From positions 72,151 through 136,150 of the forward strand of contig JAUSNP010000005.1 of NCBI GenBank assembly GCA_030645735.1: DNA of 64,000 bases, written 5' to 3'. Below, piece after piece: positions 2,615 to 56,763 of the stretch. This DNA is from Candidatus Moraniibacteriota bacterium (GTDB lineage Bacteria > Patescibacteriota > Minisyncoccia > Moranbacterales > UBA2206). Positions within the stretch are counted from its first letter, which is position 1. Every line of letters begins with the position of its first letter. The translations under genes and the position numbers were made by a program. Under the pieces are notes generated by a model, which was given only the letters and a program-made list of their open reading frames with translations, had not been told where the DNA came from and ran no database searches.

Positions 2615-4105
2615 ATGACAAAATATATTCCAGTCATCGGCATGGAAATCCATGTTGAATTGAAGACAAAATCAAAAATGTTTTGCAGTTGCAAGAACGG
2701 CTTGGGCATGGAGACTGAACCGAACGTGAACATTTGCCCAGTGTGTACCGCGCAACCCGGAACATTGCCGGTGGCCAATGAAGAGGCTATCAAATTTGTG
2801 CAGATGGCTGGCTTGGCCTTGAATTGCCAGATTGCAGAAATTTCCAAATTTGATCGCAAGAACTATTTCTATCCAGACATTCCCAAGGGCTATCAGATCT
2901 CACAATATGATCAGCCTTTGTGTGGCTTGGGTCACATAGATATAATAACCAATGACCAAGAAACAATAACCAAAAAAATAGGAATTACACGCATTCACAT
3001 GGAAGAAGACACGGGCAAATTGGTGCATCCAAAAGGCGCCGATCATTCTTTGATTGATTTCAATCGGGCGGGGGTGCCTTTGATGGAGTTGGTGACTGAG
3101 CCGGATATTGAGACGGGTAAAGAAGCAAGATTGTTCTGCCAGAAGTTGCAGCAGATTTTTCGTTATTTGGAAATTTCTGAGGCTGACATGGAAAAAGGTC
3201 ATATGCGTTGCGAGGTGAACATTTCTTTGCACAAAGAAGGTGAAGAAAAATTGAGCGGCACCAAAGCGGAAATCAAGAATCTAAATTCTTTTCGCGTGGT
3301 GGAGCGTGCTGTTGATTATGAAATCAAGCGTCAGACTGAAATTTTGGAAAAAGGTGAAAAGGTCGTGCAGGAAACTATGGGTTGGGATGAAGCACGAGGC
3401 ATCACTGTGTCACAACGCAAGAAGGAATCAGCACATGACTATCGCTATTTCCCAGAGCCGGACATCCCGCCAATGCGATTTGCAACTGATTATGTAGAAA
3501 ATTTGCGCCGTCACTTGCCAGAACTGCCAGACGCCAAAGCGAAAAGATTTGTGGAAGAATATGGTTTGTCACGGGAAAATGTAGAGGTGATCGTGAGTGA
3601 CAAAAGTCTGGCCGAATATTTTGAGCAGGTTGTTTCTGAAATTGATGAAAAGATGCAATGCCAAGAGGTGATAGCTGACAAGGAAAAATGCACCAAGCTG
3701 GCAGCTAACTATATGGTTAGTGAATTGCAAAAGCATTTGGTGAAAAATGGTGAAACAATCGCGGATGTCAAAATCAGCGCAGAAAATTATGCAGAACTTA
3801 TTGGATTTGTGGCAGATGGAAAAATCAATTCCAGCGCGGCGCAAACTGTTTTGGAAGAGATGTATGCGACAGGTGGCGATCCATCACAAATCATTGAAGC
3901 CAAAGGTTTGTTGCAGGTTAGTGACGAAGGAGTTTTGGAAACAGTGGTGGATGAGGTTTTGGCCAAGAACCAAAAATCAGTGGAGGATTTCAAGGCCGGC
4001 AAACAAAACGCTTTGCAGTTTTTGATGGGCCAAGTGATGGCGGCTTCAAAGGGCAAGGCTAATCCAGCGATGGTGATTGAAATGTTGAAGAAAAAATTAG
4101 GCTAG
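2615..4105 (+). CDS. gatB: Asp/Glu-tRNA amidotransferase subunit B
   Basis: MTKYIPVIGMEIHVELKTKSKMFCSC...NVNICPVCTAQPGTLP N-terminus and a C-terminal GatB/YqeY-type domain; 496 aa. Confidence 0.9.
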   Translation: MTKYIPVIGMEIHVELKTKSKMFCSCKNGLGMETEPNVNICPVCTAQPGTLPVANEEAIKFVQMAGLALNCQIAEISKFDRKNYFYPDIPKGYQISQYDQPLCGLGHIDIITNDQETITKKIGITRIHMEEDTGKLVHPKGADHSLIDFNRAGVPLMELVTEPDIETGKEARLFCQKLQQIFRYLEISEADMEKGHMRCEVNISLHKEGEEKLSGTKAEIKNLNSFRVVERAVDYEIKRQTEILEKGEKVVQETMGWDEARGITVSQRKKESAHDYRYFPEPDIPPMRFATDYVENLRRHLPELPDAKAKRFVEEYGLSRENVEVIVSDKSLAEYFEQVVSEIDEKMQCQEVIADKEKCTKLAANYMVSELQKHLVKNGETIADVKISAENYAELIGFVADGKINSSAAQTVLEEMYATGGDPSQIIEAKGLLQVSDEGVLETVVDEVLAKNQKSVEDFKAGKQNALQFLMGQVMAASKGKANPAMVIEMLKKKLG

Positions 4106-4871: not shown

Positions 4872-5795
4872 TTATTTTATAAACTTTGTCACTGCTTTTT
4901 GTATATCAGAATATTTGGTCAGCCAGAGAATTTTTTTGTCTTTTTGAAACCAAGTCATTTGGCGCTTGGCATAATCTTTTTCGGCCAGATAGACGCGTTC
5001 ATATAATTCTTCCAGAGTTATTTCTTCTCGCAGATATTTAGGAATCCAAAAATATCCCAAGCCAAAGCTTTGAATTTTTTTCCAACTCAATCCAACTTTG
5101 TGCAATTTTTGCACCTCTTCAAGCATGCCATCTTTCCATCTTTGATCAAGACGTTTTTTGATTTTGGCGTGCAGTTTTTCTTTGCCAGGGTTGATGCCGA
5201 TTTTCAAGGACGCATAACGTGGAACGTGGAGCGTGGAACGATTGTCTGGAACTCGGCCAACGGCTTGGCAGATTTCGATGGCACGAATGAGGCGCACTTT
5301 GTTTTTGGCATCGATGTTTTCAGCACGGCGAGTATCTAGTTTTTTGAGTTTGGTGAATAATTCTTCAGTCGATTTTGTTTCTAAATCTTTGCGTAGCTCC
5401 CAGTTTGGCGCAACCTCTGGATAAACAATATTATCAACCACTGCATCAATCCAAAAGCCAGTGCCACCGCACAAGATGGGCAGCTTTCCGCGTTTCAAAA
5501 TGTCTGCAATAGCCTTGTCAGCTTTCTTCTTGAACTGTGCCACGCTGAAATTGGTTCTCGGACTAACAACATCGATCATGTGATGATCTATGCCTTCTGA
5601 TAAAAACGTTCCACGTTCCACGTTCCACGTTCCAGGAATTTTTCCCGTGCCCACATCCATGCCGCGATAAATCTGGCGTGAATCTACTGAGACCACCTCA
5701 CCGTCAAATTTTTTGGCAAGCTCAATAGCCACCGCTGATTTGCCGGCTGAGGTTGGGCCTAATATTACGATAACTTTATTTAATTTATCTTTCAT
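4872..5795 (-). CDS. miaA: tRNA dimethylallyltransferase
   Basis: P-loop GPTSAGKSAVAIELAKKF...VSVDSRQIYRGMDVGTGK; 307 aa; adjacent to miaB. Confidence 0.9.
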   Translation of the reverse strand: MKDKLNKVIVILGPTSAGKSAVAIELAKKFDGEVVSVDSRQIYRGMDVGTGKIPGTWNVERGTFLSEGIDHHMIDVVSPRTNFSVAQFKKKADKAIADILKRGKLPILCGGTGFWIDAVVDNIVYPEVAPNWELRKDLETKSTEELFTKLKKLDTRRAENIDAKNKVRLIRAIEICQAVGRVPDNRSTLHVPRYASLKIGINPGKEKLHAKIKKRLDQRWKDGMLEEVQKLHKVGLSWKKIQSFGLGYFWIPKYLREEITLEELYERVYLAEKDYAKRQMTWFQKDKKILWLTKYSDIQKAVTKFIK

Positions 5796-5803
5796 ATACC
5801 CTT

Positions 5804-5904
5804 TGTCATTCCGGCCTTGACCCGGAATCTACTTACCGTAATTGCGAATTTAAATTTATCTCATGAATTATTGAGAAGGTCCCGGGTCAAGCCCGGGATG
5901 ACAG
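5804..5904. repeat. Miniature inverted-repeat element (TGTCATTSC-TIR family), copy 1, in the miaA-miaB spacer
   Basis: Left arm tgtcattccggccttgacccggaatc and right arm ggtcccgggtcaagcccgggatgaca are mutual reverse complements (one mismatch), and each arm is itself a hairpin. The same termini recur at 22708, 34004 (half copy) and 56685. Confidence 0.55.
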
Positions 5905-5911
5905 ATATTTT

Positions 5912-7279
5912 TTAAATTACTTTACCTTCGAGATTCCATATTTTGATGCTAGTTATTTTCACTTTCACAAACTGGCCAACTAAATTATCTTTATTGGATG
6001 AAATCTTAATATTTTTTCCAGTTCTAGTCTTGCCAAAATAAATTATTAGTTTTGATTCGTTGTTGATTTGTTTGTCATTCGCGAGTTGCTTTTTTTCAAT
6101 TAAAACTTCTTGCACGGTGTTGAGATATTTTTTGTTGTTGGCGAAAGTGGTCTTTTTCAAAATTTCATTCAGGAAGGCTTCACGTTTTTCTTTTTCAGCA
6201 TCTGAAACATTGTCTTTCATAGTCCAAGCTACGGTGCCAGGGCGGGGTGAATATTGGCCAAAGAACACCATGTCGAATTTGGCTTTTTCCATAATCTCAG
6301 CCGAGCACAAAAATTGTTTTTTGGTTTCGCCAGGGAAACCAACAATGATGTCAGAGGTCAAGGCAAAAGGCACGCCAGGTTTGTATTTTTTGAAAGCAGC
6401 TTTGATTTTGCGTACCAAATTCATATAATGTTTGGCAGTGTATTTGCGATTCATTTTTTGGATGACTTCATCTGAGCCAGACTGAACAGGCAGATGCACA
6501 GCTTCGCAAACTTTTTTGGATCTGGCAACAACTTCAATCAATTCATCCGACATATCCTTTGGGTGGGAAGACACAAATTGAATCCAAAACTTCCCTGGAA
6601 TCGCATCAATCTTTTTTAGCAACTGAGCAAAATTAATTTCTTGCGCTCCACGTTTTGCGTTCCACGTTCCACGATATGAATTTACATTCTGACCAAGCAG
6701 AGTGATAGATCTATAGCCAAGTTTAATCAGGCTTTTTATTTCATCAATTATTTCTTCGGCTGGTCGGGAAGTTTCGCGACCGCGAGCATAGGGGACGACG
6801 CAGTAGGAGCAGAAGTTGTTGCAGCCAGTCATGATGGGAACCTGCGCAGAGAATCTGGTTGTGTATTTTGGTTGTATTTTTAGATATTGATTCAAGCCAT
6901 CGTCAAAAGTAGTTTGTAGTTTGTAGTTTGTAGTTGGTAGAATTTTTTCAATTTCGCTTGGAAAGTTTTTGATTTCACAAAACAAATCAACATTGCCCTT
7001 GAGTCGTCTTTGCACGTCTTTGCGATTGGCAATACAGCCTGTCAGCACGATTAGCGGTCTACATTCCACGTTTTGTATTCCATGTTTCCTGAGGTTGTGA
7101 ATCAGGCTGTAGGCTCGGTTTTCAGCCGCCTGACGTACTCCACAAGTGTTGAAAATGACCAAGGAGGCCTCTGTCATGTCGGAAGCCGTCTGATAGCCCT
7201 TCTCGTCCAAAAAGCCCGCAATTCGCTCAGAATCCGAGATATTCATTTGACAGCCGAAGGTTTTAATGTAATATTTCAT
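5912..7279 (-). CDS. miaB: tRNA-i6A37 methylthiotransferase (radical SAM MTTase)
   Basis: MKYYIKTFGCQMNISDSE N-terminus, radical-SAM CNNFCSYC motif and a TRAM C-terminus; 455 aa. Confidence 0.9.
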   Translation of the reverse strand: MKYYIKTFGCQMNISDSERIAGFLDEKGYQTASDMTEASLVIFNTCGVRQAAENRAYSLIHNLRKHGIQNVECRPLIVLTGCIANRKDVQRRLKGNVDLFCEIKNFPSEIEKILPTTNYKLQTTFDDGLNQYLKIQPKYTTRFSAQVPIMTGCNNFCSYCVVPYARGRETSRPAEEIIDEIKSLIKLGYRSITLLGQNVNSYRGTWNAKRGAQEINFAQLLKKIDAIPGKFWIQFVSSHPKDMSDELIEVVARSKKVCEAVHLPVQSGSDEVIQKMNRKYTAKHYMNLVRKIKAAFKKYKPGVPFALTSDIIVGFPGETKKQFLCSAEIMEKAKFDMVFFGQYSPRPGTVAWTMKDNVSDAEKEKREAFLNEILKKTTFANNKKYLNTVQEVLIEKKQLANDKQINNESKLIIYFGKTRTGKNIKISSNKDNLVGQFVKVKITSIKIWNLEGKVI

Positions 7280-15277: not shown

Positions 15278-15317
15278 GATATTTTAATGTGTAATTTTTT
15301 TAATTAATTTTTTCTGT

Positions 15318-15438
15318 TAGATAAGTCTAAGGTCTAATATCTAAAGACTAAATGAAGTCTAAAATATTTAAGTCTAATTTCTTTTTACTTTATACTTTAG
15401 ATTTGTTTTAGTCTTTAGTCTTTGAAATTTAGACTTAT
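15318..15438. repeat. Palindromic array of AAGTCTAA/TTAGACTT motifs (locus A)
   Basis: The left half carries aagtctaa-type units and the right half the reverse-complement ttagtctt/ttagactt units around an AT-rich centre. The same architecture and motif recur at 17841 and 62976. Confidence 0.6.
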
Positions 15439-15665
15439 AAAAAATAAAAAAACCACTATTCTAAAAAATAGGGCTTATGCGTCAAAAACTAATAAAAACT
15501 TTTTCATATGATTGTCTCTTCCTTCATAGCCCGGATTGCTCACTGGGTTTTGCAAGGTAGATTGATATGAAACAAGTATAGCATGGTTTGGAAAATAAAA
15601 GAACCCGCTAGAGACACGCATGAAATGTTCTTCATGGGTCTAGCGGGTTCTGGCGGGCAGGAGCA

Positions 15666-17827: not shown

Positions 17828-17840
17828 TTAGTTTTTTTTA

Positions 17841-17968
17841 AATCTAAAGTCTAATTACTAAAGTCTAAATAAAGGCTAAAGTTTGAAAGTATAAAGTTTA
17901 AATAAAAAATATTTTAGACTTTAGACTTTAGAACTTCCTTTGGACTTTAAACTTTAGAATTTAGACTT
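17841..17968. repeat. Palindromic array of AAGTCTAA/TTAGACTT motifs (locus B, nusB-rnc spacer)
   Basis: Left half aatctaaagtctaattactaaagtctaaataaaggctaaag; right half ttagactttagactttagaactt...ggactttaaactttagaatttagactt. Confidence 0.6.
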
Positions 17969-17977
17969 CCAAATTTT

Positions 17978-18667
17978 GTGATTGAGGAATTAGCTGAAAA
18001 AATCGGCGTAAAATTTAATAATATTGAACTTTTGCAACAAGCTTTGACGCATCGTTCCTATTTGAATGAGCATCGAGACTACAAACTTGAGCACAATGAG
18101 CGCTTGGAGTTTCTGGGTGATGCTGTTTTGGAGTTGGTAGTGACCGAATATCTATATGCAAAATTTTCCAATCCAGAAGGTGAGCTGACCAATTGGCGCG
18201 CGTCATTGGTCAATGGTGAAATGTTGGCTAAGATTTCTGGTCGGATTGGTGTGGAAGAATTTTTGTTGATGAGCAAAGGTGAAGCCAAAGACACTGGCAA
18301 GGCGCGGCAATATTTGTTGGCCAACGCTTTCGAAGCTATTATCGGCGCAGTCTATTTGGATCAGAAAGAAAAAGGCTATGATGTTTGCAAAGAATTTATT
18401 TTGAAAAATGTTGTCTCTGAATTGGCTGAAATCATTGAAAACAAATCATATATGGATCCGAAAAGTCTTTTTCAAGAAAAGGCGCAGGAAAAAGTCAGTG
18501 TGACCCCGTCATACAAAGTCATTGAAGAGAGTGGCCCAGACCATGCGCGAAAATTTGTAGTTGGAGTCTATCTTGATCATGAACTGATTGCGTCTGGCGA
18601 AGGCATGTCCAAACAAGAAGCGCAAAGGAATGCGGCTGCTGCTGGGTTGGAGGCGAAAAAATGGTAA
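17978..18667 (+). CDS. rnc: Ribonuclease III (likely GTG start)
   Basis: RNase III signature ERLEFLGDAVLELVV and a C-terminal dsRBD; 229 aa. Confidence 0.9.
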   Translation: MIEELAEKIGVKFNNIELLQQALTHRSYLNEHRDYKLEHNERLEFLGDAVLELVVTEYLYAKFSNPEGELTNWRASLVNGEMLAKISGRIGVEEFLLMSKGEAKDTGKARQYLLANAFEAIIGAVYLDQKEKGYDVCKEFILKNVVSELAEIIENKSYMDPKSLFQEKAQEKVSVTPSYKVIEESGPDHARKFVVGVYLDHELIASGEGMSKQEAQRNAAAAGLEAKKW

Positions 18668-22707: not shown

Positions 22708-22807
22708 TGTCATTGCGAGCGACTGAAAGGAGCGCGGCAATCCCATGATTCGTGCATCAGAACTAGAGATTGCCACAGTCGTTCTGCGGAACTCCTTCGC
22801 AATGACA
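22708..22807. repeat. Miniature inverted-repeat element (TGTCATTSC-TIR family), copy 2
   Basis: Termini ctgtcattgcgag...ctccttcgcaatgacaa; internal inverted repeat gcggcaatc...gattgccac. Confidence 0.55.
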
Positions 22808-33237: not shown

Positions 33238-33840
33238 TTGCCCAAAGCTGGGTTTTGGAATAAAATTTTTAGTAGAATACAAAATAAAAATAATTTCAAA
33301 AACAAAAACATGGGCGAGCCTGCTTATAAAAATCTTTTGACTTACAAATATGCCGTGCTTATTTATGATATGAACAAAGAATTCATCGCACGATTTGTTT
33401 CTGGGGCAGAAAACATGAGGCAACGTCAACAGATGGACCAAGCGGCACGCTCATCCAAACAATGCATCGTCGAAGGCGCGATGCAGGGCACGAGTCTCAA
33501 GGGTTATATCAAAATGCTTGGAGTTTCGCGAGGGAGTTGGGAGGAATTGCTGGAGGATTATAAGGATATTGCCAGGCTTGGGAAAATTGAGGTTTGGAAT
33601 TCTGAGGGGTTGAGGAGGGAAAGGGGGTTCAGGGTTTTCGTGAAAGACAACGAACCTCTACCTCCTACACCTCCGCTACCTCCTGACTTCGCTGTGTCGG
33701 TCAACATTATGATTGATCTCATCACAAGGACAAACTTTCTTCTGGATCAACAAAAAAGAGCGCTAGAAGAAAAGTTTTTGAGAGAGGGTGGTTACACTGA
33801 AAATTTGTACAAAAAACGCAGAGAAACGAGAGGGTTTTAG
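33238..33840 (+). CDS. Four-helix-bundle protein (23S rRNA intervening-sequence protein family-like); real start probably MGEPAYK
   Basis: The segment YKYAVLIYDMNKEFIARFVSGAENMRQRQQMDQAARSSKQCIVEGAMQGTSLKGYIKMLGVSRGSWEELL matches the general pattern of the family; terminator at 33862-33888. Confidence 0.45.
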   Translation: MPKAGFWNKIFSRIQNKNNFKNKNMGEPAYKNLLTYKYAVLIYDMNKEFIARFVSGAENMRQRQQMDQAARSSKQCIVEGAMQGTSLKGYIKMLGVSRGSWEELLEDYKDIARLGKIEVWNSEGLRRERGFRVFVKDNEPLPPTPPLPPDFAVSVNIMIDLITRTNFLLDQQKRALEEKFLREGGYTENLYKKRRETRGF

Positions 33841-34003: not shown

Positions 34004-34047
34004 GCGAGATTGCCACGTCGTCCGCGGCGGACTCCTCGCAATGACAA
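34004..34047. repeat. Half copy (right arm) of the TGTCATTSC-TIR element family
   Basis: gagattgccacgtcgtccgcggcggactcctcgcaatgaca is about 85% identical to the right arm of copy 2 (22766-22807); no left arm detectable. Confidence 0.45.
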
Positions 34048-34052
34048 TAAAG

Positions 34053-34487
34053 ATGTTCATAGGCGAATACCAACATTTAGTTGACGAGAAAAAAAGATTG
34101 GCGGTGCCAAGCAAGTTTCGAGTCGAGTTGAAAAACAAAGTTGTGGTGACACGCGGACTTGATAAATGTTTGTTTGTCTATCCAATGAAAGCTTGGGAAG
34201 AGTTGGCCAGCAAATTGGGAACCTTGCCAGTCGGAGAAGCTGGCACCCGAAGTTTCACGCGTTTGATGTTGGCTGGAGCAGTGGATGTGGATGTGGACAA
34301 GCAAGGAAGAATTTTGATTCCAGATTATTTGAAAGAATATGCAGGACTGGCGAAAAATGTTGTGATTGCAGGACTGTATAATCGTTTAGAAATTTGGGAT
34401 GAAAAGAAATGGAACGCATACAAGAAAGGTGCTGAGAAAAATTCAGATGAGATTGCGGAACAGTTGGGCAAGTTAGGAGTATATTAG
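34053..34487 (+). CDS. mraZ: Transcriptional regulator MraZ
   Basis: MFIGEYQHLVDEKKRLAVPSKFR and a second SpoVT/AbrB-like repeat; the ORF-track start at 34041 would overlap the repeat element, so the ATG at 34053 is preferred. Confidence 0.85.
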   Translation: MFIGEYQHLVDEKKRLAVPSKFRVELKNKVVVTRGLDKCLFVYPMKAWEELASKLGTLPVGEAGTRSFTRLMLAGAVDVDVDKQGRILIPDYLKEYAGLAKNVVIAGLYNRLEIWDEKKWNAYKKGAEKNSDEIAEQLGKLGVY

Positions 34488-34488
34488 G

Positions 34489-34610
34489 AAATTCAAAATC
34501 CAAAATCTCAAATTCCAAATAAATACAAATATCAAAATCCAAAATGTTTTGAGTTTAGAAAATTGTAATTTTGAATTTATTTGGGATTTGTAATTTATAA
34601 TTTGTAATTT
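34489..34610. repeat. Palindromic array of AAAATCCAAAAT-type motifs (mraZ-rsmH spacer)
   Basis: Left half aaatccaaaat/aaatctcaaattccaaat repeats; right half the reverse-complement attttgaattt/atttgggattt units. The architecture matches the AAGTCTAA arrays with a different unit. Confidence 0.5.
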
Positions 34611-34612
34611 AG

Positions 34613-35551
34613 ATGGTTATTCATAAACCGGTTTTGTTGAAAGAAAGTATAGAACGATTAAATTTGAAATCTGAGTCCATTGCTGTGGACGCCACTCTGG
34701 GGGGAGGCGGACACAGCATTGGCATGTTAAATATAATTGGCAGAAGTGGAAAGCTCGTTGGTATCGATCAGGACACAGTGGCGGTGGAAAATTTCCGACA
34801 GAAAAATTCCGCGGACAATGTGATTTTGGTCAAAGACAATTTCGCTAATCTGAAAAATGTTTTGACAGAATTTGGTCCGCCAGCTGGCGGAGAAAAAGTA
34901 GATGCGATTCTGGCTGACCTAGGATATTCTTCCATGCAATTGGAAGACACAGGGATTGGCATGAGTTTTCTGCAAGATGCGCCATTGGACATGCGCCTTG
35001 ATCGTGATGGTAAGTTGTCTGCTAAGGCGGTAGTCAACACCTATTCACAAGGCGAGTTGAGCAGGCTTATCAAAAATTTTGGCGAAGAAAGATTTGCCAG
35101 TATCATTGCCAAGCGAATTGTGGATGCTCGCAAGAAAAAAGAAATTGAGACGACCACTGATTTGGTGGAAATCATCAACACGGCTATTCCAGAAAAATTC
35201 AAGCACGGCAAACTGCATCCAGCCACTAAAACATTTCAGGCATTGCGCATCGAAGTCAATCATGAATTGGAGGTTCTGGAAAAATTCATTCCGCAAGCAA
35301 TTGAAGCATTGAATCCGGGCGGACGATTGGCCATCATTTCATTTCATTCATTAGAAGACAGAATAGTTAAGGATATATTTCGGACACATGCTAGGGGATG
35401 CATCTGTCCAGCTGATTTTCCGATTTGCCAATGTGGCCAAATGGCGAAGGTCAAAATCATCACTAAAAAACCAGTTGAGCCAAGCGTTGAGGAGATTGCA
35501 GAAAATCCGAGATCACGCAGTGCCAAACTGAGAGTTTGTGAGAAGTTATAA
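34613..35551 (+). CDS. rsmH: 16S rRNA (cytosine1402-N4)-methyltransferase
   Basis: HKPVLLKESIERL...DATLGGGGHS; MraW family; 312 aa. Confidence 0.9.
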   Translation: MVIHKPVLLKESIERLNLKSESIAVDATLGGGGHSIGMLNIIGRSGKLVGIDQDTVAVENFRQKNSADNVILVKDNFANLKNVLTEFGPPAGGEKVDAILADLGYSSMQLEDTGIGMSFLQDAPLDMRLDRDGKLSAKAVVNTYSQGELSRLIKNFGEERFASIIAKRIVDARKKKEIETTTDLVEIINTAIPEKFKHGKLHPATKTFQALRIEVNHELEVLEKFIPQAIEALNPGGRLAIISFHSLEDRIVKDIFRTHARGCICPADFPICQCGQMAKVKIITKKPVEPSVEEIAENPRSRSAKLRVCEKL

Positions 35552-35665
35552 TCCCAGTTAAATAGCCAGCTACGCTGGCCTGTCCACTACGGAGACAGAA
35601 TTTAACGGGATAAAAAACAAACATAAATATAAACAAACAATTTATTGTCAGGGGGCTGAAAATAA

Positions 35666-36094
35666 ATGTCGCGAGTTTTGATTCTAAACAAATCTGCATC
35701 GAGCTTGAAGAACGCTCGCTTGCAACGAAATTCGACCTATAGCAATGGCGCCTTTTGCGCTGTGCGCAGGAGCTTTTCGGAAAAGAGGAAATCTTTCAGT
35801 GCTGGCAGTGCCAATTTGAATTTGGTGTCTTTGGTTTTTGTGATGGTGTTCTGTGTTTGCATCGGTGGTGCGGCCTATCTCTATCAAGTGAATGATATCG
35901 CCACTAAGGGCTATGAAATTCGTGATTTGGAAAATCAGATTCAAGATTTGAGCAAGGAAAGCAAAAAGATGGAAATTCGGGAAGTGGAATTGCGCTCGAT
36001 GTATAATATTGAAAAAGCTTCACAAGACTTGAATCTAGTTAACTCAAATGATGTGACATATGTAGAAATCGACGGGCCAGTAGCTATGCGATAA
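35666..36094 (+). CDS. ftsL: Cell-division protein FtsL-like (single TM plus coiled coil)
   Basis: Sits between rsmH and ftsI; TM segment LVSLVFVMVFCVCIGGAAYL followed by a coiled coil. Confidence 0.55.
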   Translation: MSRVLILNKSASSLKNARLQRNSTYSNGAFCAVRRSFSEKRKSFSAGSANLNLVSLVFVMVFCVCIGGAAYLYQVNDIATKGYEIRDLENQIQDLSKESKKMEIREVELRSMYNIEKASQDLNLVNSNDVTYVEIDGPVAMR

Positions 36095-36096
36095 TG

Positions 36097-36283
36097 GAGC
36101 TAGATTTCTTATCTCACCGCTTATTTTAAAAACTTCTATATTGCTTGCCTGCTAAAATTTTCTAATTTTGGCTGCAAACCCTTCAAAGCTCGTCAGGTTA
36201 TCTCTATAGCCTTCCTCACTTTTCATGGTTTTCGCTCAAAATTATAAAATTCTATCTAGGCATGAGATAAGAAATCTAGCTCT
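36097..36283. mobile_element. 187-bp element with perfect 21-bp terminal inverted repeats filling the ftsL-ftsI spacer
   Basis: ggagctagatttcttatctca (36097-36117) versus tgagataagaaatctagctct (36263-36283); no ORF inside. Confidence 0.6.
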
Positions 36284-36292
36284 CGCATCTTT

Positions 36293-38164
36293 ATGTTTAA
36301 TATACACAAAAAAAATTCAGAGGATATCGCAAACTGGCGGATTTATACATTAGTTTTTGTATTTTTTGCAATCGTAGCGGTTCTCTTTCTTCGTTTTTAT
36401 AGTTTGCAGTTTGTGCAACAGGAACAATACCGTGCTTTGGCGGAAGGACAACATTCTTTTTTTCAAAATCTGATTCCCAAGCGTGGTGAGATTTTCATGA
36501 AAGACAAAAATGGAATCTATCCGGCCGCGGTCAATCGAGAAACAAAGCTGGCCTATGCAGTGCCAAAGGAGATTGAGAATCCAGCTGACGCAGCTTTTGC
36601 GGTGGCGCAAGTTTTGCAGATGGACGCAACTGAGCTCAAAGAAAAGTTTTCCAAAGAAAATGATTCTTATGAACCTTTGAAACACAGATTGAGTGATGAA
36701 GAAATTGCGAGCATCAACAATTTGAAACTGAAAGGATTGCATTTGTCGGATGAAAGTTATCGCTATTATCCTTCCAATGAATTGGCCGCTAATGTGATTG
36801 GGTTTGTGGGCTGGAAAGATGATAAATTAGGCGGTCGCTATGGATTGGAATCATATTTTGATGAAGAGTTGCGAGGCACAGAAGGTTCGCTGTTTCATCA
36901 GCGTGACGCTTCAGGTAGCTGGATTGGCGTGGGGCAGAAAGAAATCACTGCCGCGAGAGATGGAGATACGCTTTTTTTGACCATTGACCATATTGTACAA
37001 TATCAAACGGAAAGAATTATTAAAAGCGCCGTGGAAAAATATGGCGCGGATGGTGGGAACATCACGGTGATGGAGCCAGCTACCGGCAAGATATTGTCTA
37101 TGGCAAGCTTTCCAACTTTCAATCCAAATGATTATGCCAAGACCGAAGATATCAATGCTTTCAGGAATCCAGCTGTGAGTGATGCCTATGAATCTGGTAG
37201 TGTTTTCAAAACTTTCACCATCGCGGCGGGGCTAGATAGTGAAAAGATTGCGCCAGATACAACTTACACCGACACAGGCGCCGTGAGTGAAGCAGGCTAC
37301 ACCATCAAGAATTCTGATTTGAAAGCCAATGGCGTGCAAACTATGACAGAAGTTTTAGAAAAGTCATTGAATACTGGCGTGATTTATGTAGAAAAATTGT
37401 TAGGCAATAAAAATTTTGCGGATTACATCACTAGGTTTGGATTTGGCGAGCGCACGGGCATCGATTTGATTGGCGAGCCCAAAGGCAATCTTAACAATTT
37501 AAAAAATTTGAAAAGTGACATCCAGTTTTTTACAGCTTCATTTGGTCAAGGCATCACGGTTACGCCGATTCAGTTGGCGGTAGCTTATAGTGCCATTGCT
37601 AATGGTGGTACACTGATGAAGCCACAGGTTGTGGAGAAAGTAGTTCATGGGGATGGTCGCGAAGAGATTATTGATGCGCAAGAGGTGCGACGGGTTATTT
37701 CCCAAAAAGCGGCCGCACAAACCTCACAAATTTTGCGCAGTGTGGTGGTGAATGGCCATGGCAAAAGAGCCGGTGTGCCAGGCTTTCTGGTAGGTGGCAA
37801 AACTGGCACAGCGCAAATTGTAGATGCGGAAACGAAAAATTATGCTGAAGGAAAATCTACAGGATCTTTTGGCGGCTTTGCGCCAATCAATGATCCAAAG
37901 TTTACTATTGTAGTCAAACTTGATAATCCAAGGAATGTGGAGTGGGCAGAATCGAGTGCGGCGCCAGCCTTTGGAGAATTAATGAAATTTTTGCTAGAAT
38001 ACTATAATATAGAACCAACCGAAGCGTATACTCAAAAAGATTTAGATGCTTTCAATCAAGCGCACAACTTGATTCAATTTAAGAAAGAAGAGACAGAGGC
38101 TAAAGATGAAGTGGTTGCGCTAAAGCCTGAAGTAGCGGAAATTAAGAAAGATAAAAAGAATTAG
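36293..38164 (+). CDS. ftsI: Penicillin-binding protein 2B/3 (FtsI transpeptidase)
   Basis: N-terminal TM, dimerisation domain, transpeptidase motifs SVFKTF (SxxK), SxN, KTGTA; 623 aa. Confidence 0.9.
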   Translation: MFNIHKKNSEDIANWRIYTLVFVFFAIVAVLFLRFYSLQFVQQEQYRALAEGQHSFFQNLIPKRGEIFMKDKNGIYPAAVNRETKLAYAVPKEIENPADAAFAVAQVLQMDATELKEKFSKENDSYEPLKHRLSDEEIASINNLKLKGLHLSDESYRYYPSNELAANVIGFVGWKDDKLGGRYGLESYFDEELRGTEGSLFHQRDASGSWIGVGQKEITAARDGDTLFLTIDHIVQYQTERIIKSAVEKYGADGGNITVMEPATGKILSMASFPTFNPNDYAKTEDINAFRNPAVSDAYESGSVFKTFTIAAGLDSEKIAPDTTYTDTGAVSEAGYTIKNSDLKANGVQTMTEVLEKSLNTGVIYVEKLLGNKNFADYITRFGFGERTGIDLIGEPKGNLNNLKNLKSDIQFFTASFGQGITVTPIQLAVAYSAIANGGTLMKPQVVEKVVHGDGREEIIDAQEVRRVISQKAAAQTSQILRSVVVNGHGKRAGVPGFLVGGKTGTAQIVDAETKNYAEGKSTGSFGGFAPINDPKFTIVVKLDNPRNVEWAESSAAPAFGELMKFLLEYYNIEPTEAYTQKDLDAFNQAHNLIQFKKEETEAKDEVVALKPEVAEIKKDKKN

Positions 38165-39475
38165 ATGACAAACGAAAAATCTCAAAAAATATTAATTTTA
38201 CAGAAAATCATGCGCTTCATGGCTGTTTCGGTTTTGAAAAAATATAATCCAAAAATCATCAGCATTACTGGCTCAGTCGGCAAAACTTCAACCAAGGAGG
38301 CAATTTCAACTGTTTTGGCGAGCAAATTTCGCGTCAGAAGGACGGAGAAGAATTATAACAATGAAATCGGTTTGCCATTGACCATCATTGGCGCCACCAG
38401 TGGCGAAAGCTCTTTAGTGGGCTGGTTTTTGGTTTTTTTGAAATGGTTGTGGATTATGCTTGCCCCGATTGAATATCCGGAAATTTTAGTTTTGGAAATG
38501 GGCGCTGACCGACCTGGCGACATTCAATATCTGACCAGCTTTATAAAGTCCAACGCGGGTGTCATCACTGACATTTCCTATAGTCACGTGGAATATTTCA
38601 AAGGCATCGAGGGCGTGGCCAGAGAAAAAGGTACCTTGGTCAAAGAATTGGATGAAAAGGGTTTGGCAGTTTTGAATGCGGACAATGAGTTTGTGGCTAA
38701 ACTTGCCAGTCAAATCAAATGCAATGTGATCTCCTTCGGTTTTTCCGAAGAGGCGCAGATGCGCGTTAGCGATGTCTGTTTGGGTTGCGCAGGCCAAGCA
38801 GGTGATTTGAAAGGCCTGAGTTTCAAATTAAATTATAAAGGCACGACTATTCCAGTTCGTCTTAATAATATTTTAGCTAAGCATCAAATTTATGCGGTGT
38901 TAGCGGCGATAGCGGTGGGTGATGGTTTTGGCATCAATCTGGTTGAAGCTGGCGCAGCTTTGGAAAACTTCTCTTTGCCGGTTGGGCGCATGAATTTGCT
39001 CTCTGGCCTCAAAAACACGCATATAATCGATGATACCTACAATTCTTCACCCACCTCAGCTTTGGCAGCCTTGGAGGCCTTGGGCGAAATCAAAGCGACC
39101 AGAAAAATCGCAGTCTTGGGTGATATGTTGGAATTGGGTGAGGAGTCTGAAAATGGGCATAAATCCTTGGGCAAAAAATTTGCGCAAATCAAAGGGAGCA
39201 TTTTTCTGGCCGTCGGCAATCGAATGAAGCAGACTGGCAAGGAATTAGAGAAAAATAATTTTCCAACTAAAAATATTTTTTATTTTGACAGTCCAGATGA
39301 GGCTGGCAAAAAGTTACAAGAAATTATGCAAGCGGGTGATTTGATTCTGGTGAAAGGTTCACAGGGCATGCGTATGGAAAAAGTGGTGGAAGAGGTGATG
39401 GCCGATTCAGCACAAGCCAAAAAACTTTTGTGCCGTCAAACAGAAGCATGGCGCACCACGCCTTTTGTGGGATAA
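38165..39475 (+). CDS. murF: UDP-MurNAc-tripeptide--D-Ala-D-Ala ligase
   Basis: ITGSVGKTSTKE P-loop; Mur ligase middle and C-terminal domains; 436 aa. Confidence 0.88.
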   Translation: MTNEKSQKILILQKIMRFMAVSVLKKYNPKIISITGSVGKTSTKEAISTVLASKFRVRRTEKNYNNEIGLPLTIIGATSGESSLVGWFLVFLKWLWIMLAPIEYPEILVLEMGADRPGDIQYLTSFIKSNAGVITDISYSHVEYFKGIEGVAREKGTLVKELDEKGLAVLNADNEFVAKLASQIKCNVISFGFSEEAQMRVSDVCLGCAGQAGDLKGLSFKLNYKGTTIPVRLNNILAKHQIYAVLAAIAVGDGFGINLVEAGAALENFSLPVGRMNLLSGLKNTHIIDDTYNSSPTSALAALEALGEIKATRKIAVLGDMLELGEESENGHKSLGKKFAQIKGSIFLAVGNRMKQTGKELEKNNFPTKNIFYFDSPDEAGKKLQEIMQAGDLILVKGSQGMRMEKVVEEVMADSAQAKKLLCRQTEAWRTTPFVG

Positions 39476-39567
39476 TTGACGCCTGCGCCCCCACACTAAC
39501 TTTGCATTGGCCTGTGGCCATCACCTTTGGTGATATGCAAGGTTAGTGTGGGGGTGTGGATAACTTT

Positions 39568-46693: not shown

Positions 46694-46724
46694 AAATAAA
46701 TATTACAAGATATACAACACAAAA

Positions 46725-46808
46725 CATGTAACATGAAACATGAAACAAGGTATTCCCACAAAGTTATCTTAAAAATGTTACATGTTTCATGCTTCATGTT
46801 GCATGAAT
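46725..46808. repeat. Palindromic array of CATGAAACA/TGTTTCATG motifs
   Basis: catgtaacatgaaacatgaaaca ... tgttacatgtttcatgcttcatgttgcatg; the halves are reverse complements. Confidence 0.5.
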
Positions 46809-53681: not shown

Positions 53682-55664
53682 ATGCCAGAAATAAATTTTT
53701 TTGCTAAAACTAATTTCAGAAATCAGGAAGTGAGCTTCGGTATCAAGCGCGATGATCGAAGGCGGCACATGTATGTGATTGGAAAGACTGGAATGGGAAA
53801 ATCTAATCTTTTGGAGAATATGGCTATTCAGGATATTCGCAATGGCGAAGGTGTTTGTGTAGTTGATCCGCACGGTGAGTTTGCGGAAAAGATGTTGCAA
53901 GCAGTGCCAGCGGAGCGCATCAACGATGTAGTCTATTTCAATCCGTCGGATGCGGAATTTCCAATCGCTTTCAACATTTTGGAATCAGTGGCGGATGATA
54001 AGAAAAATCTCGTGGCTTCCGGTATGATGGGCGTGTTCAAAAAGATTTGGCCGGATGTGTGGAGCGCTCGAATGGAATATATTTTGAGCAATACAATTTT
54101 GGCACTTTTGGATTTTCCGGGTTCAACTATGCTGGGAGTGAATCGCATGATGTCTGACAAAGATTTTAGAAAACGAGTCTATCCAAAAATCAAAGATCCA
54201 GTGGTAAAATCTTTTTGGCTCAATGAGTTTGACAAGTGGGAGGATAAGTTTCGAAAAGAAGCGGTGGCAGCTATTCAAAACAAAGTCGGACAGTTTTTAT
54301 CTTCTTCAGTCATTCGCCATATTGTGGGGCAACCAAAATCGACCATTGATATGCGTGACATTATGGACAATCAAAAAATCTTGATTGTGAATTTGTCCAA
54401 AGGTCGGATTGGTGAAGACTCGATGCGACTTTTGGGTGGAATGCTGATCACAAAAATTCAGTTGGCAGCTATGAGTCGTGTAGATATGCCAGAGGAAGAC
54501 AGAGTAGATTTTTATTTATATGTGGATGAATTCCAAAACTTTGCCACAGAATCTTTTGCTAACATTTTGTCTGAAGCCAGAAAATATAAATTGAATCTGA
54601 TTTTGGCGCATCAATATATCAATCAGTTGATTTTTGATGGCAATGCCACGGTGCGTGACGCTGTGTTTGGCAATGTGGGAACGATTGTGTCTTTCCGTGT
54701 GGGCGCGGAAGATGCGGAAGCCTTGGAGAAGGAATTTGAGCCAGTTTTCATGATGAATGATATTGTGAATCTTTCTAAATATCACATCTATCTGAAATTG
54801 ATGATTGATGGCGTGGCAGGGGATGCTTTTTCAGCCACAACTTTGCCTCCACTTGATCTGACTGGAACAAGTGGCAATGAAGAAAAAATTATTCGCGTGA
54901 CACGGGAGAAATGTGGCCGGCCAAAAAGTGAGGTGGAGGATCGCATTGCTCGCTGGAGTGGTATGGAAGTTTTCAAAGAAGCACCCGCTGGTGGACAAGA
55001 AGAGGCTGATGATATGGATTCAGAATTGTATGAAGGACCAAGCGTGACAATTGAACCGCCTCCAGCTTCAACCCCAACGCTTATTTTTAGACCAACCAAT
55101 CCGCCGGTTGAGTCACCAGTTATTCGACCAGTAGTGACTCCAGTAGCAAGACCAATCGCTGTGCCTGTCGCTCAAAAGTCAGTAGCTCCGGTAGCAAAGA
55201 CTGTTGTGCAAACAGCAGTGTCTGCCACAATGCAAAAAATTGAATCGGCATTGAGTCAACCATCTGCACCAGCTGAGGTTGCAGTTGAAAAACCAAAGGA
55301 AATGTATTCAACTATTTGCGCGACTTGTGAAGAAATAATTACGGTGCCGTTCAAACCAGATCCCGCCCGTCCAGCTTTTTGTCGAGAGTGCTTGAAAGAG
55401 CATCAGCGCATGATGGCCAGAAAGAAAAATGAATTGGCGGAACAACAAGCTCCAGCAGTGCGAGTGAATCCAATTGTGGCTAAGATTGAACCAGAAAAAA
55501 ACATTGCGCCAGAATCACAGCGAGTGGTGCATGCTCCGCAAGACAAGCCGATGAGCCTGTCTCAAATGTCTCACATTGCTCCCAAAGCTTTCCGTTCACA
55601 AAAGCAAAAGCCAGACCTGGGCGCAATCCGAAGCATCATTCAGGAGGCTAGAACTGAGAAATAG
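53682..55664 (+). CDS. FtsK/HerA/VirD4(TraG)-superfamily P-loop ATPase with a Pro/Val-rich linker and C-terminal CxxC...CxxC zinc ribbon
   Basis: Walker A YVIGKTGMGKSNLLE, Walker B FYLYVDEFQNFA; C-terminus CATCEEIITVPFKPDPARPAFCRECL; 660 aa. Confidence 0.65.
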   Translation: MPEINFFAKTNFRNQEVSFGIKRDDRRRHMYVIGKTGMGKSNLLENMAIQDIRNGEGVCVVDPHGEFAEKMLQAVPAERINDVVYFNPSDAEFPIAFNILESVADDKKNLVASGMMGVFKKIWPDVWSARMEYILSNTILALLDFPGSTMLGVNRMMSDKDFRKRVYPKIKDPVVKSFWLNEFDKWEDKFRKEAVAAIQNKVGQFLSSSVIRHIVGQPKSTIDMRDIMDNQKILIVNLSKGRIGEDSMRLLGGMLITKIQLAAMSRVDMPEEDRVDFYLYVDEFQNFATESFANILSEARKYKLNLILAHQYINQLIFDGNATVRDAVFGNVGTIVSFRVGAEDAEALEKEFEPVFMMNDIVNLSKYHIYLKLMIDGVAGDAFSATTLPPLDLTGTSGNEEKIIRVTREKCGRPKSEVEDRIARWSGMEVFKEAPAGGQEEADDMDSELYEGPSVTIEPPPASTPTLIFRPTNPPVESPVIRPVVTPVARPIAVPVAQKSVAPVAKTVVQTAVSATMQKIESALSQPSAPAEVAVEKPKEMYSTICATCEEIITVPFKPDPARPAFCRECLKEHQRMMARKKNELAEQQAPAVRVNPIVAKIEPEKNIAPESQRVVHAPQDKPMSLSQMSHIAPKAFRSQKQKPDLGAIRSIIQEARTEK

Positions 55665-56684: not shown

Positions 56685-56763
56685 TGTCATTCCCGCGTAG
56701 GCGGGAATCTAGGGTAGAAACTTAATGATGCATGACTGGATTCCCGTTTCCACGGGAATGACA
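56685..56763. repeat. Miniature inverted-repeat element (TGTCATTSC-TIR family), copy 4, just upstream of mnmA
   Basis: tgtcattcccgcgtaggcgggaatc ... gattcccgtttccacgggaatgaca; same arm architecture as copy 1. Confidence 0.55.

Follow-up and report, generated by a model that had tools for sequence, protein, structure and literature searches.

A single-copy, lineage-specific long hairpin in the ftsL-ftsI spacer of a Moranbacteria genome that may have formed in place

Long double-stranded stems between the cistrons of one operon are known as intercistronic RNase III processing sites or as REP-type mRNA stabilisers, as in the T7 early mRNA and in malE-malF. Short inverted-ended elements between genes may also be MITEs; those of the Correia type, with ERIC, RUP, and bcr1 as similar bacterial examples, occur in tens to hundreds of copies and are accompanied by target-site duplications (TA for Correia). 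The Correia repeat-enclosed elements of Neisseria are noncoding, about 100 to 190 bp long, bounded by terminal inverted repeats, and located between genes; they are co-transcribed, and RNase III can bind or cleave the RNA hairpins that they form (PMC2649163). Template switching has been documented to make perfect stems in a single event, and in such quasipalindrome hairpins an outgroup has one arm, while the other is the exact reverse complement of nearby sequence (Monttinen and Loytynoja, 2022; PMC8794818). Here, we compare with these systems a long hairpin located between ftsL and ftsI in a 64-kb stretch of DNA from Moranbacteria, which belong to the candidate phyla radiation (CPR; Patescibacteria); the whole stretch is referred to as the window.

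As judged by Pfam matches, the genes around the hairpin run in the order mraZ (positions 34041 to 34487; Pfam MraZ), rsmH (34613 to 35551; Pfam RsmH/MraW), an ftsL-like gene (35666 to 36094, forward strand), ftsI (36293 to 38164, forward strand), and murF (38165 to 39475; Pfam Mur ligase). The ftsL-like gene encodes 142 aa with a weak DivIC/FtsL-like match and carries the NCBI name "hypothetical protein Q7T51_03010," and the ftsI product, which has PBP dimerisation and transpeptidase domains, is identical to NCBI MDO8240921.1. The original prediction had set the element inside an otherwise tightly packed dcw operon. That description does not fit, as the mraZ-rsmH and rsmH-ftsL spacers measure 125 and 114 nt, each also with hairpins, and ftsI-murF is the sole abutting junction. 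Directly upstream of mraZ, between terminator-like hairpins, lies a 200-aa ORF (33238 to 33840) with a weak match to the 23S rRNA intervening-sequence protein family (four-helix bundle). Further along the window, a 660-aa TraG/TrwB/VirD4-like coupling-protein ATPase (53682 to 55664; HerA/DUF87 plus a treble-clef zinc finger) is encoded amid housekeeping genes.

The inverted repeat between ftsL and ftsI is real and far beyond chance. Matches to its 21-mer were found in the window only at 36096 to 36116 (forward strand, 0 mismatches) and 36263 to 36283 (reverse strand, 1 mismatch); the number expected from 100 shuffles was 0, with no comparable match in any of them. The hairpin-forming element spans 36096 to 36283 on the forward strand, that is, 188 nt of the 198-nt spacer, so that the repeat predicted at 36097 to 36283 (187 bp) was confirmed with its start and length corrected. 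A repeat search returned two arms (36097 to 36116 and 36263 to 36282, forward-strand coordinates) of 20 nt, 100% complementary and with 146 nt between them. They had been described as perfect over 21 bp, but the outermost pair, G36096:T36283, is a mismatch in DNA and would wobble as G:U in RNA. In ftsL, the TAA stop occupies 36092 to 36094, and the ftsI ATG begins at 36293; the element therefore starts 1 nt past the stop and ends 9 nt ahead of the ATG, and the distances given earlier for a start at 36097 (2 nt and 9 nt) were right. The entire element, ends included, is an imperfect palindrome laid out as the outer 20 bp, a 29-nt segment confined to the left side (36117 to 36145, an asymmetric internal loop), and an inner imperfect palindrome of approximately 117 nt (36146 to 36262), whose arms agree at about 68%, with indels, and whose apex lies near 36203.

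When folded as RNA, the forward strand gives one long imperfect hairpin of -61.2 kcal/mol (z -9.1), consistent with the proposal of an RNA stem of about 190 nt, which would form in the operon transcript. The reverse strand as RNA yielded -71.4 kcal/mol (z -8.7) and the element as DNA -38.5 kcal/mol (z -8.2), and an asymmetry of 2 versus 4 G:U wobble pairs between the strands was uninformative on which of them is the RNA. In the minimum free energy structure, the stem is prolonged outward by pairing of ATGCGA (36086 to 36091), the final two sense codons of ftsL (Met-Arg), with TCGCAT (36283 to 36288), which ends 4 nt before the ftsI ATG; the ftsL stop is left in a 5-nt bulge, TAATG (36092 to 36096). 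The chance of an extension of this type, estimated from random flank pairs, was 0.006 to 0.017. The right-side copy of the left sequence can be counted either as 20/20 exact or, with the ftsL codons included, as 26/26 with one 5-nt gap. Rfam covariance models gave no match at the element at the gathering score, and under a permissive threshold only a spurious match (E = 3.1) at 35747 to 35845, outside the element, was returned.

The element is AT-rich, small, and devoid of coding capacity (as predicted, it holds no ORF, just unsupported frames of 21 to 42 aa), and its 20-bp ends are perfect against 68% identity of its inner arms. These features speak for a MITE or a foreign palindromic insert, in which the whole 188 nt, or just the inner 117-nt palindrome, would have transposed, with the terminal repeats as transposase binding sites. 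However, no second copy was found within the 64-kb window, even with sensitive blastn. The 20-mer arm had 0 exact matches in the GTDB representative genomes (one per species); exact matching in the JGI metagenomes returned two one-armed matches inside unrelated ORFs (encoding 493-aa and 1,325-aa proteins), IMG/VR gave three 18-mer matches, all one-armed, and blastn against phages and plasmids gave no match. Of the source genome, the search covered these 64 kb, and the large public collections were scanned by exact 18- to 28-mers, so that a low-copy or diverged family may have escaped it. In addition, neither a 2- to 10-nt direct repeat at the element ends, with offsets of 0 to 2 tried (flanks ...GCGATAAT / CGCATCTTT...), nor a transposase among the 60 window ORFs scanned was detected. 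The two metagenome matches, on L018 (3083 to 3108) and L019 (3085 to 3106), have a 23-nt stretch identical to the arm; both encode DEIRNLAL, and we set them aside as a coding coincidence in unrelated proteins.

A genuine MITE/REP-like family of the clade is represented by the multicopy palindromes TGTCATTSC...GSAATGACA, which have conserved 9-nt ends, a variable interior, and a length of about 80 to 100 nt. At least three copies lie in the window (5804 to 5903, 22708 to 22807, and 56685 to 56763). In L002, the relative nearest to the window over this operon (84 to 97% protein identity), another copy (L002 positions 5873 to 5973, the TGTCATTCC element) takes up the whole ftsI-murF spacer, at a junction where the window is without any spacer. 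Members of this family are, like the ftsL-ftsI element, hairpin-forming inserts in intergenic spacers, and the copy in the L002 dcw operon shows that such insertions happen in the clade, which counts in favor of a MITE. Nevertheless, the family termini are absent from 36096 to 36283, and the ftsL-ftsI element shares neither ends nor interior with it.

The spacers of relatives bear on both the mobility and the age of the element. In 13 distinct relatives, the ftsL-ftsI spacer measures 4 to 57 nt, compared with 198 nt in the window, and the hairpin is present in none: 4 nt in L002, 6 nt in L034, 11 nt in L033, 13 to 17 nt in L030/L031, L032, and L037, 44 nt in L003, 48 nt in L027, 49 nt in L004, 53 nt in L023 and L006, 54 nt in L005, 55 nt in L024, and 57 nt in L035. 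Five of the longer spacers were folded and proved unstructured (z +0.5 to +1.0). Since none of the 13 spacers has the hairpin, the element is not a conserved regulatory stem, the alternative raised together with the original prediction. That alternative was to be recognized by the absence of any other copy together with an identical spacer in all relatives; no other copy of the terminal repeat was found in the sequences searched, and the relatives do not keep an identical spacer. The idea of a recent insertion holds as regards a lineage-specific gain (4 nt in the closest relative and 6 to 57 nt in the 12 others) and is not supported as regards a mobile element.

The most informative relative is L023 (JGI Ga0334722_10063928), a sister Moranbacteria contig from a sample other than that of the window, with an FtsI 81 to 83% identical to the window FtsI; over the opening 100 nt, the two ftsI genes agree at 92%. 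The L023 spacer is 53 nt long, begins GGGAGCTAGATTTTATATCTTACCGTTTAT, and is identical at 25/29 positions to window 36096 to 36124, the left arm plus 8 nt (L023 positions 65 to 93 against element positions 1 to 29, 86%), indicating that the left arm is native spacer sequence common to both and that the first 8 nt of the left-only segment are homologous as well. The right arm and the inner palindrome are absent from the L023 spacer, and the right arm occurs in no relative. The L023 spacer aligned better than shuffles with the outgroup spacers of L006 (p 0.003) and L035 (p 0.02), values that are nominally significant only, L023 being the sole relative with a left-arm homologue. Alignments of its tail with the 29-nt segment of the window (p 0.12) and with the rest of the window spacer, including the hairpin apex (p 0.66), were not significant.

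Because the L023 spacer has a typical length (44 to 57 nt in other relatives) and aligns with the outgroups, it looks ancestral and not like a deletion product. The simplest reading of these sequences is that the L023 spacer represents the ancestral type, that the left "TIR" is native, and that the right arm arose later as an inverted copy of it that includes the end of ftsL. A regulatory hairpin already present in the common lineage of the window and L023, its base kept perfect by selection, and lost by deletion in L023 and L002, would also leave L023 with the left 29 nt; the two inner arms differ more from each other than the window does from L023, which hints at age, and long palindromes are prone to deletion. 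We nonetheless consider this improbable, given the clade-typical length of the L023 spacer and its alignment with outgroup spacers over its full length, the lack of the hairpin in all 13 relatives and of structure in the five folded, and the 4-nt spacer of the closest relative.

The comparison with L023 also weighs on transposition. A clean empty site with both ends foreign would be expected for a MITE, but here the left arm plus 8 nt is native and the repeat enters the ftsL codons. The inverted ends, the small size, and the lack of coding capacity agree with a MITE. A demonstrable mobile element is not supported, and an origin of the element by transposition is, in our estimation, unlikely, even though local sequence does not explain the inner palindrome. 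Compared with Correia, ERIC, RUP, and bcr1, the ftsL-ftsI element is single copy in the searches made, has no duplication, and has one native arm.

We give a probability of roughly 55% to the reading that the element is a single-copy, lineage-specific long hairpin born in place and not a transposed MITE. In the ancestor, ftsL and ftsI would have been separated by some 50 nt of ordinary spacer without structure, beginning GGAGCTAGATTT, to which about 145 nt would have been added in the window lineage. The added sequence would end in an exact reverse-complement copy of the first 20 nt of the spacer and of the last two ftsL codons, produced by inverted duplication or a template switch during replication, which may have built outward from an inner palindrome of greater age. 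Such a switch has as its signature a new arm that exactly reverse-complements adjacent, preexisting sequence, and from this, together with the presence of one arm and the absence of the other in L023, we infer such an origin for the hairpin.

A single four-point switch does not explain the whole change, since it accounts for neither the inner 117-nt palindrome nor the 29-nt segment found on one side. Five nucleotides are missing from the copied ftsL end, which calls for a second event. Moreover, sensitive blastn found no source for the inner palindrome in local sequence, and its arms look older than the split between the window and L023; taken together with the 5-nt gap, this points to more than one event. 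Foreign palindromic DNA may have been inserted first. The element thus resembles the hairpins of Monttinen and Loytynoja (PMC8794818) in having one arm in the outgroup and the other as an exact reverse complement of nearby sequence, but at 188 nt it is far larger than the 2- to 10-bp RNA helices of that paper, a single four-point switch leaves its inner palindrome (about 117 nt) and the 5-nt gap of the copied sequence unexplained, and its setting is an mRNA spacer instead of an RNA gene. Hairpins born in place between cistrons are a kind of thing already known, and the ftsL-ftsI case is a fresh example.

A chimeric inverted join made during assembly or amplification would produce an inverted copy as well. 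In another assembly of SRR13727526, two contigs break at the hairpin apex, one ending at 36199 and the other starting at 36175, and they overlap by just 25 nt, as such an artefact might leave them; coverage, a population variant, or the behavior of the assembler may lie behind the break. Both halves are, however, 100% identical to the window and the overlap is consistent; a chimeric fold-back would not show the imperfect pairing and the one-sided 29 nt of this palindrome, and L023, which comes from another sample, bears out the left arm. We regard an artefact as very improbable.

Hairpins are frequent in the intergenic regions of the window, many of which carry strong and unique ones, as seen by folding all spacers with few shuffles and hence rough z-scores. 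At three other junctions, the ftsI-murF spacer described above among them, the hairpins differ between the window and L002. Immediately after the murF stop, the window has a near-perfect hairpin (39488 to 39554; 20-bp arms, 28 pairs in the fold) that L002 lacks, the flanking TGTGGATAACTTTTTGACATAC following almost directly past its murF stop; this hairpin is another lineage-specific gain. In the rsmH-ftsL spacer, L002 (approximately 3460 to 3530) bears one hairpin more than the window (35552 to 35665), about 55 nt long and of sequence CCCTGTTAAAT...ATTTAACAGGG. The stems of this extra hairpin are similar to the conserved hairpin next to it, TCCCAGTTAAAT...ATTTAACGGGA, and hairpins may have been duplicated locally. 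Intergenic inverted repeats built of tandem motifs (AACGTGG, GTCTAAAG, AAATYCAAAAT, and AACATGW) are found at 5216 to 5631, 15308 to 15451, 17835 to 17933, 34489 to 34610, and 46723 to 46800 of the window; one of them fills the mraZ-rsmH spacer, where L002 has a similar structure. The ftsL-ftsI hairpin seems to belong to a large set of intergenic hairpins, each of them unique, that are gained and lost within the clade, and the process seems to be general.

A consensus scan revealed no promoter- or terminator-like site in the ftsL-ftsI spacer, so the hairpin is probably co-transcribed within an mraZ-rsmH-ftsL-ftsI-murF mRNA. A promoter seen by eye (TTTTCA-17-TATAAA) was discarded because the invariant final T is missing. 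Attenuation of ftsI expression, an idea already put forward, would have the extended stem, with its GC-rich base AUGCGA/UCGCAU, act with the following CUUUAUGUUU as a partial terminator between ftsL and ftsI, and there are indeed 5 to 6 U in the 8 nt directly after the extended stem. Such a role is doubtful: the terminator scan was negative at the hairpin and the U-rich tract is interrupted, whereas the genuine terminators of this genome are compact GC-rich stems with runs of at least 6 U. The tract is, furthermore, the conserved start of ftsI (MFNI), present also in relatives without the hairpin, and the consensus scan found no promoter-like site downstream of the hairpin from which ftsI and murF could be served.

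The effects that the hairpin may have at the RNA level are predicted from its fold and position. In the nearest relatives, the ftsI start lies 4 to 17 nt past the ftsL stop, suggesting translational coupling. Folding of the window transcript would shrink the 198-nt gap to a few nucleotides, the ftsL stop lying in the bulge where the helix begins and the ftsI AUG 4 to 9 nt past its base. A ribosome finishing ftsL might then melt the base of the helix and expose the ftsI start, so that coupling would survive, and even be enforced, and the insertion would be tolerated as nearly neutral. A larger reading, which joins such a "spatial splice," where the ribosome terminating at UAA melts or steps across the base and reinitiates at the ftsI AUG, to birth and death of template-switch hairpins as a force shaping Moranbacteria spacers, is a speculation to which we assign a small likelihood. 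As for initiation itself, ftsI is among the 56 of 69 predicted genes of the window that lack a Shine-Dalgarno sequence (no GGAG, GAGG, or AGGA upstream of the start), and upstream regions are A/T-rich, which suggests that initiation is mostly independent of Shine-Dalgarno. A split Shine-Dalgarno, in which the hairpin would bring the GGAG at 36096 near the AUG, was rejected, since this GGAG is paired in the stem, most genes have no Shine-Dalgarno, and relatives have the GGAG about 45 nt from the AUG and no structure.

The perfect 20-bp helix is also a candidate RNase III site, at which the upstream and downstream halves of the transcript would be separated. Its uninterrupted double-stranded length reaches the approximately 20 bp or more that the enzyme needs, and the window encodes an RNase III (rnc; 17978 to 18667, forward strand; Ribonuclease_3 and dsrm domains), making cleavage plausible. 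In this, the locus would be analogous to the Correia elements of Neisseria (PMC2649163). It also resembles the T7 early mRNA and malE-malF, with an extended duplex separating two cistrons of the same operon and an RNase III gene at hand, but the ftsL-ftsI stem is not conserved and its cleavage is a prediction.

The locus advises caution against calling any short inverted-ended element a MITE, since one "terminal repeat" here is the locus's own sequence. It also offers a testable case of how a tightly coupled operon tolerates an insertion of 190 nt. If the origin in place is true, the hairpin would be unusual in size and cleanness as a case of a perfect RNA stem, of 20 to 26 bp, arising by inverted duplication within an essential operon, and it would suggest that hairpins turn over fast in the spacers of reduced CPR genomes.
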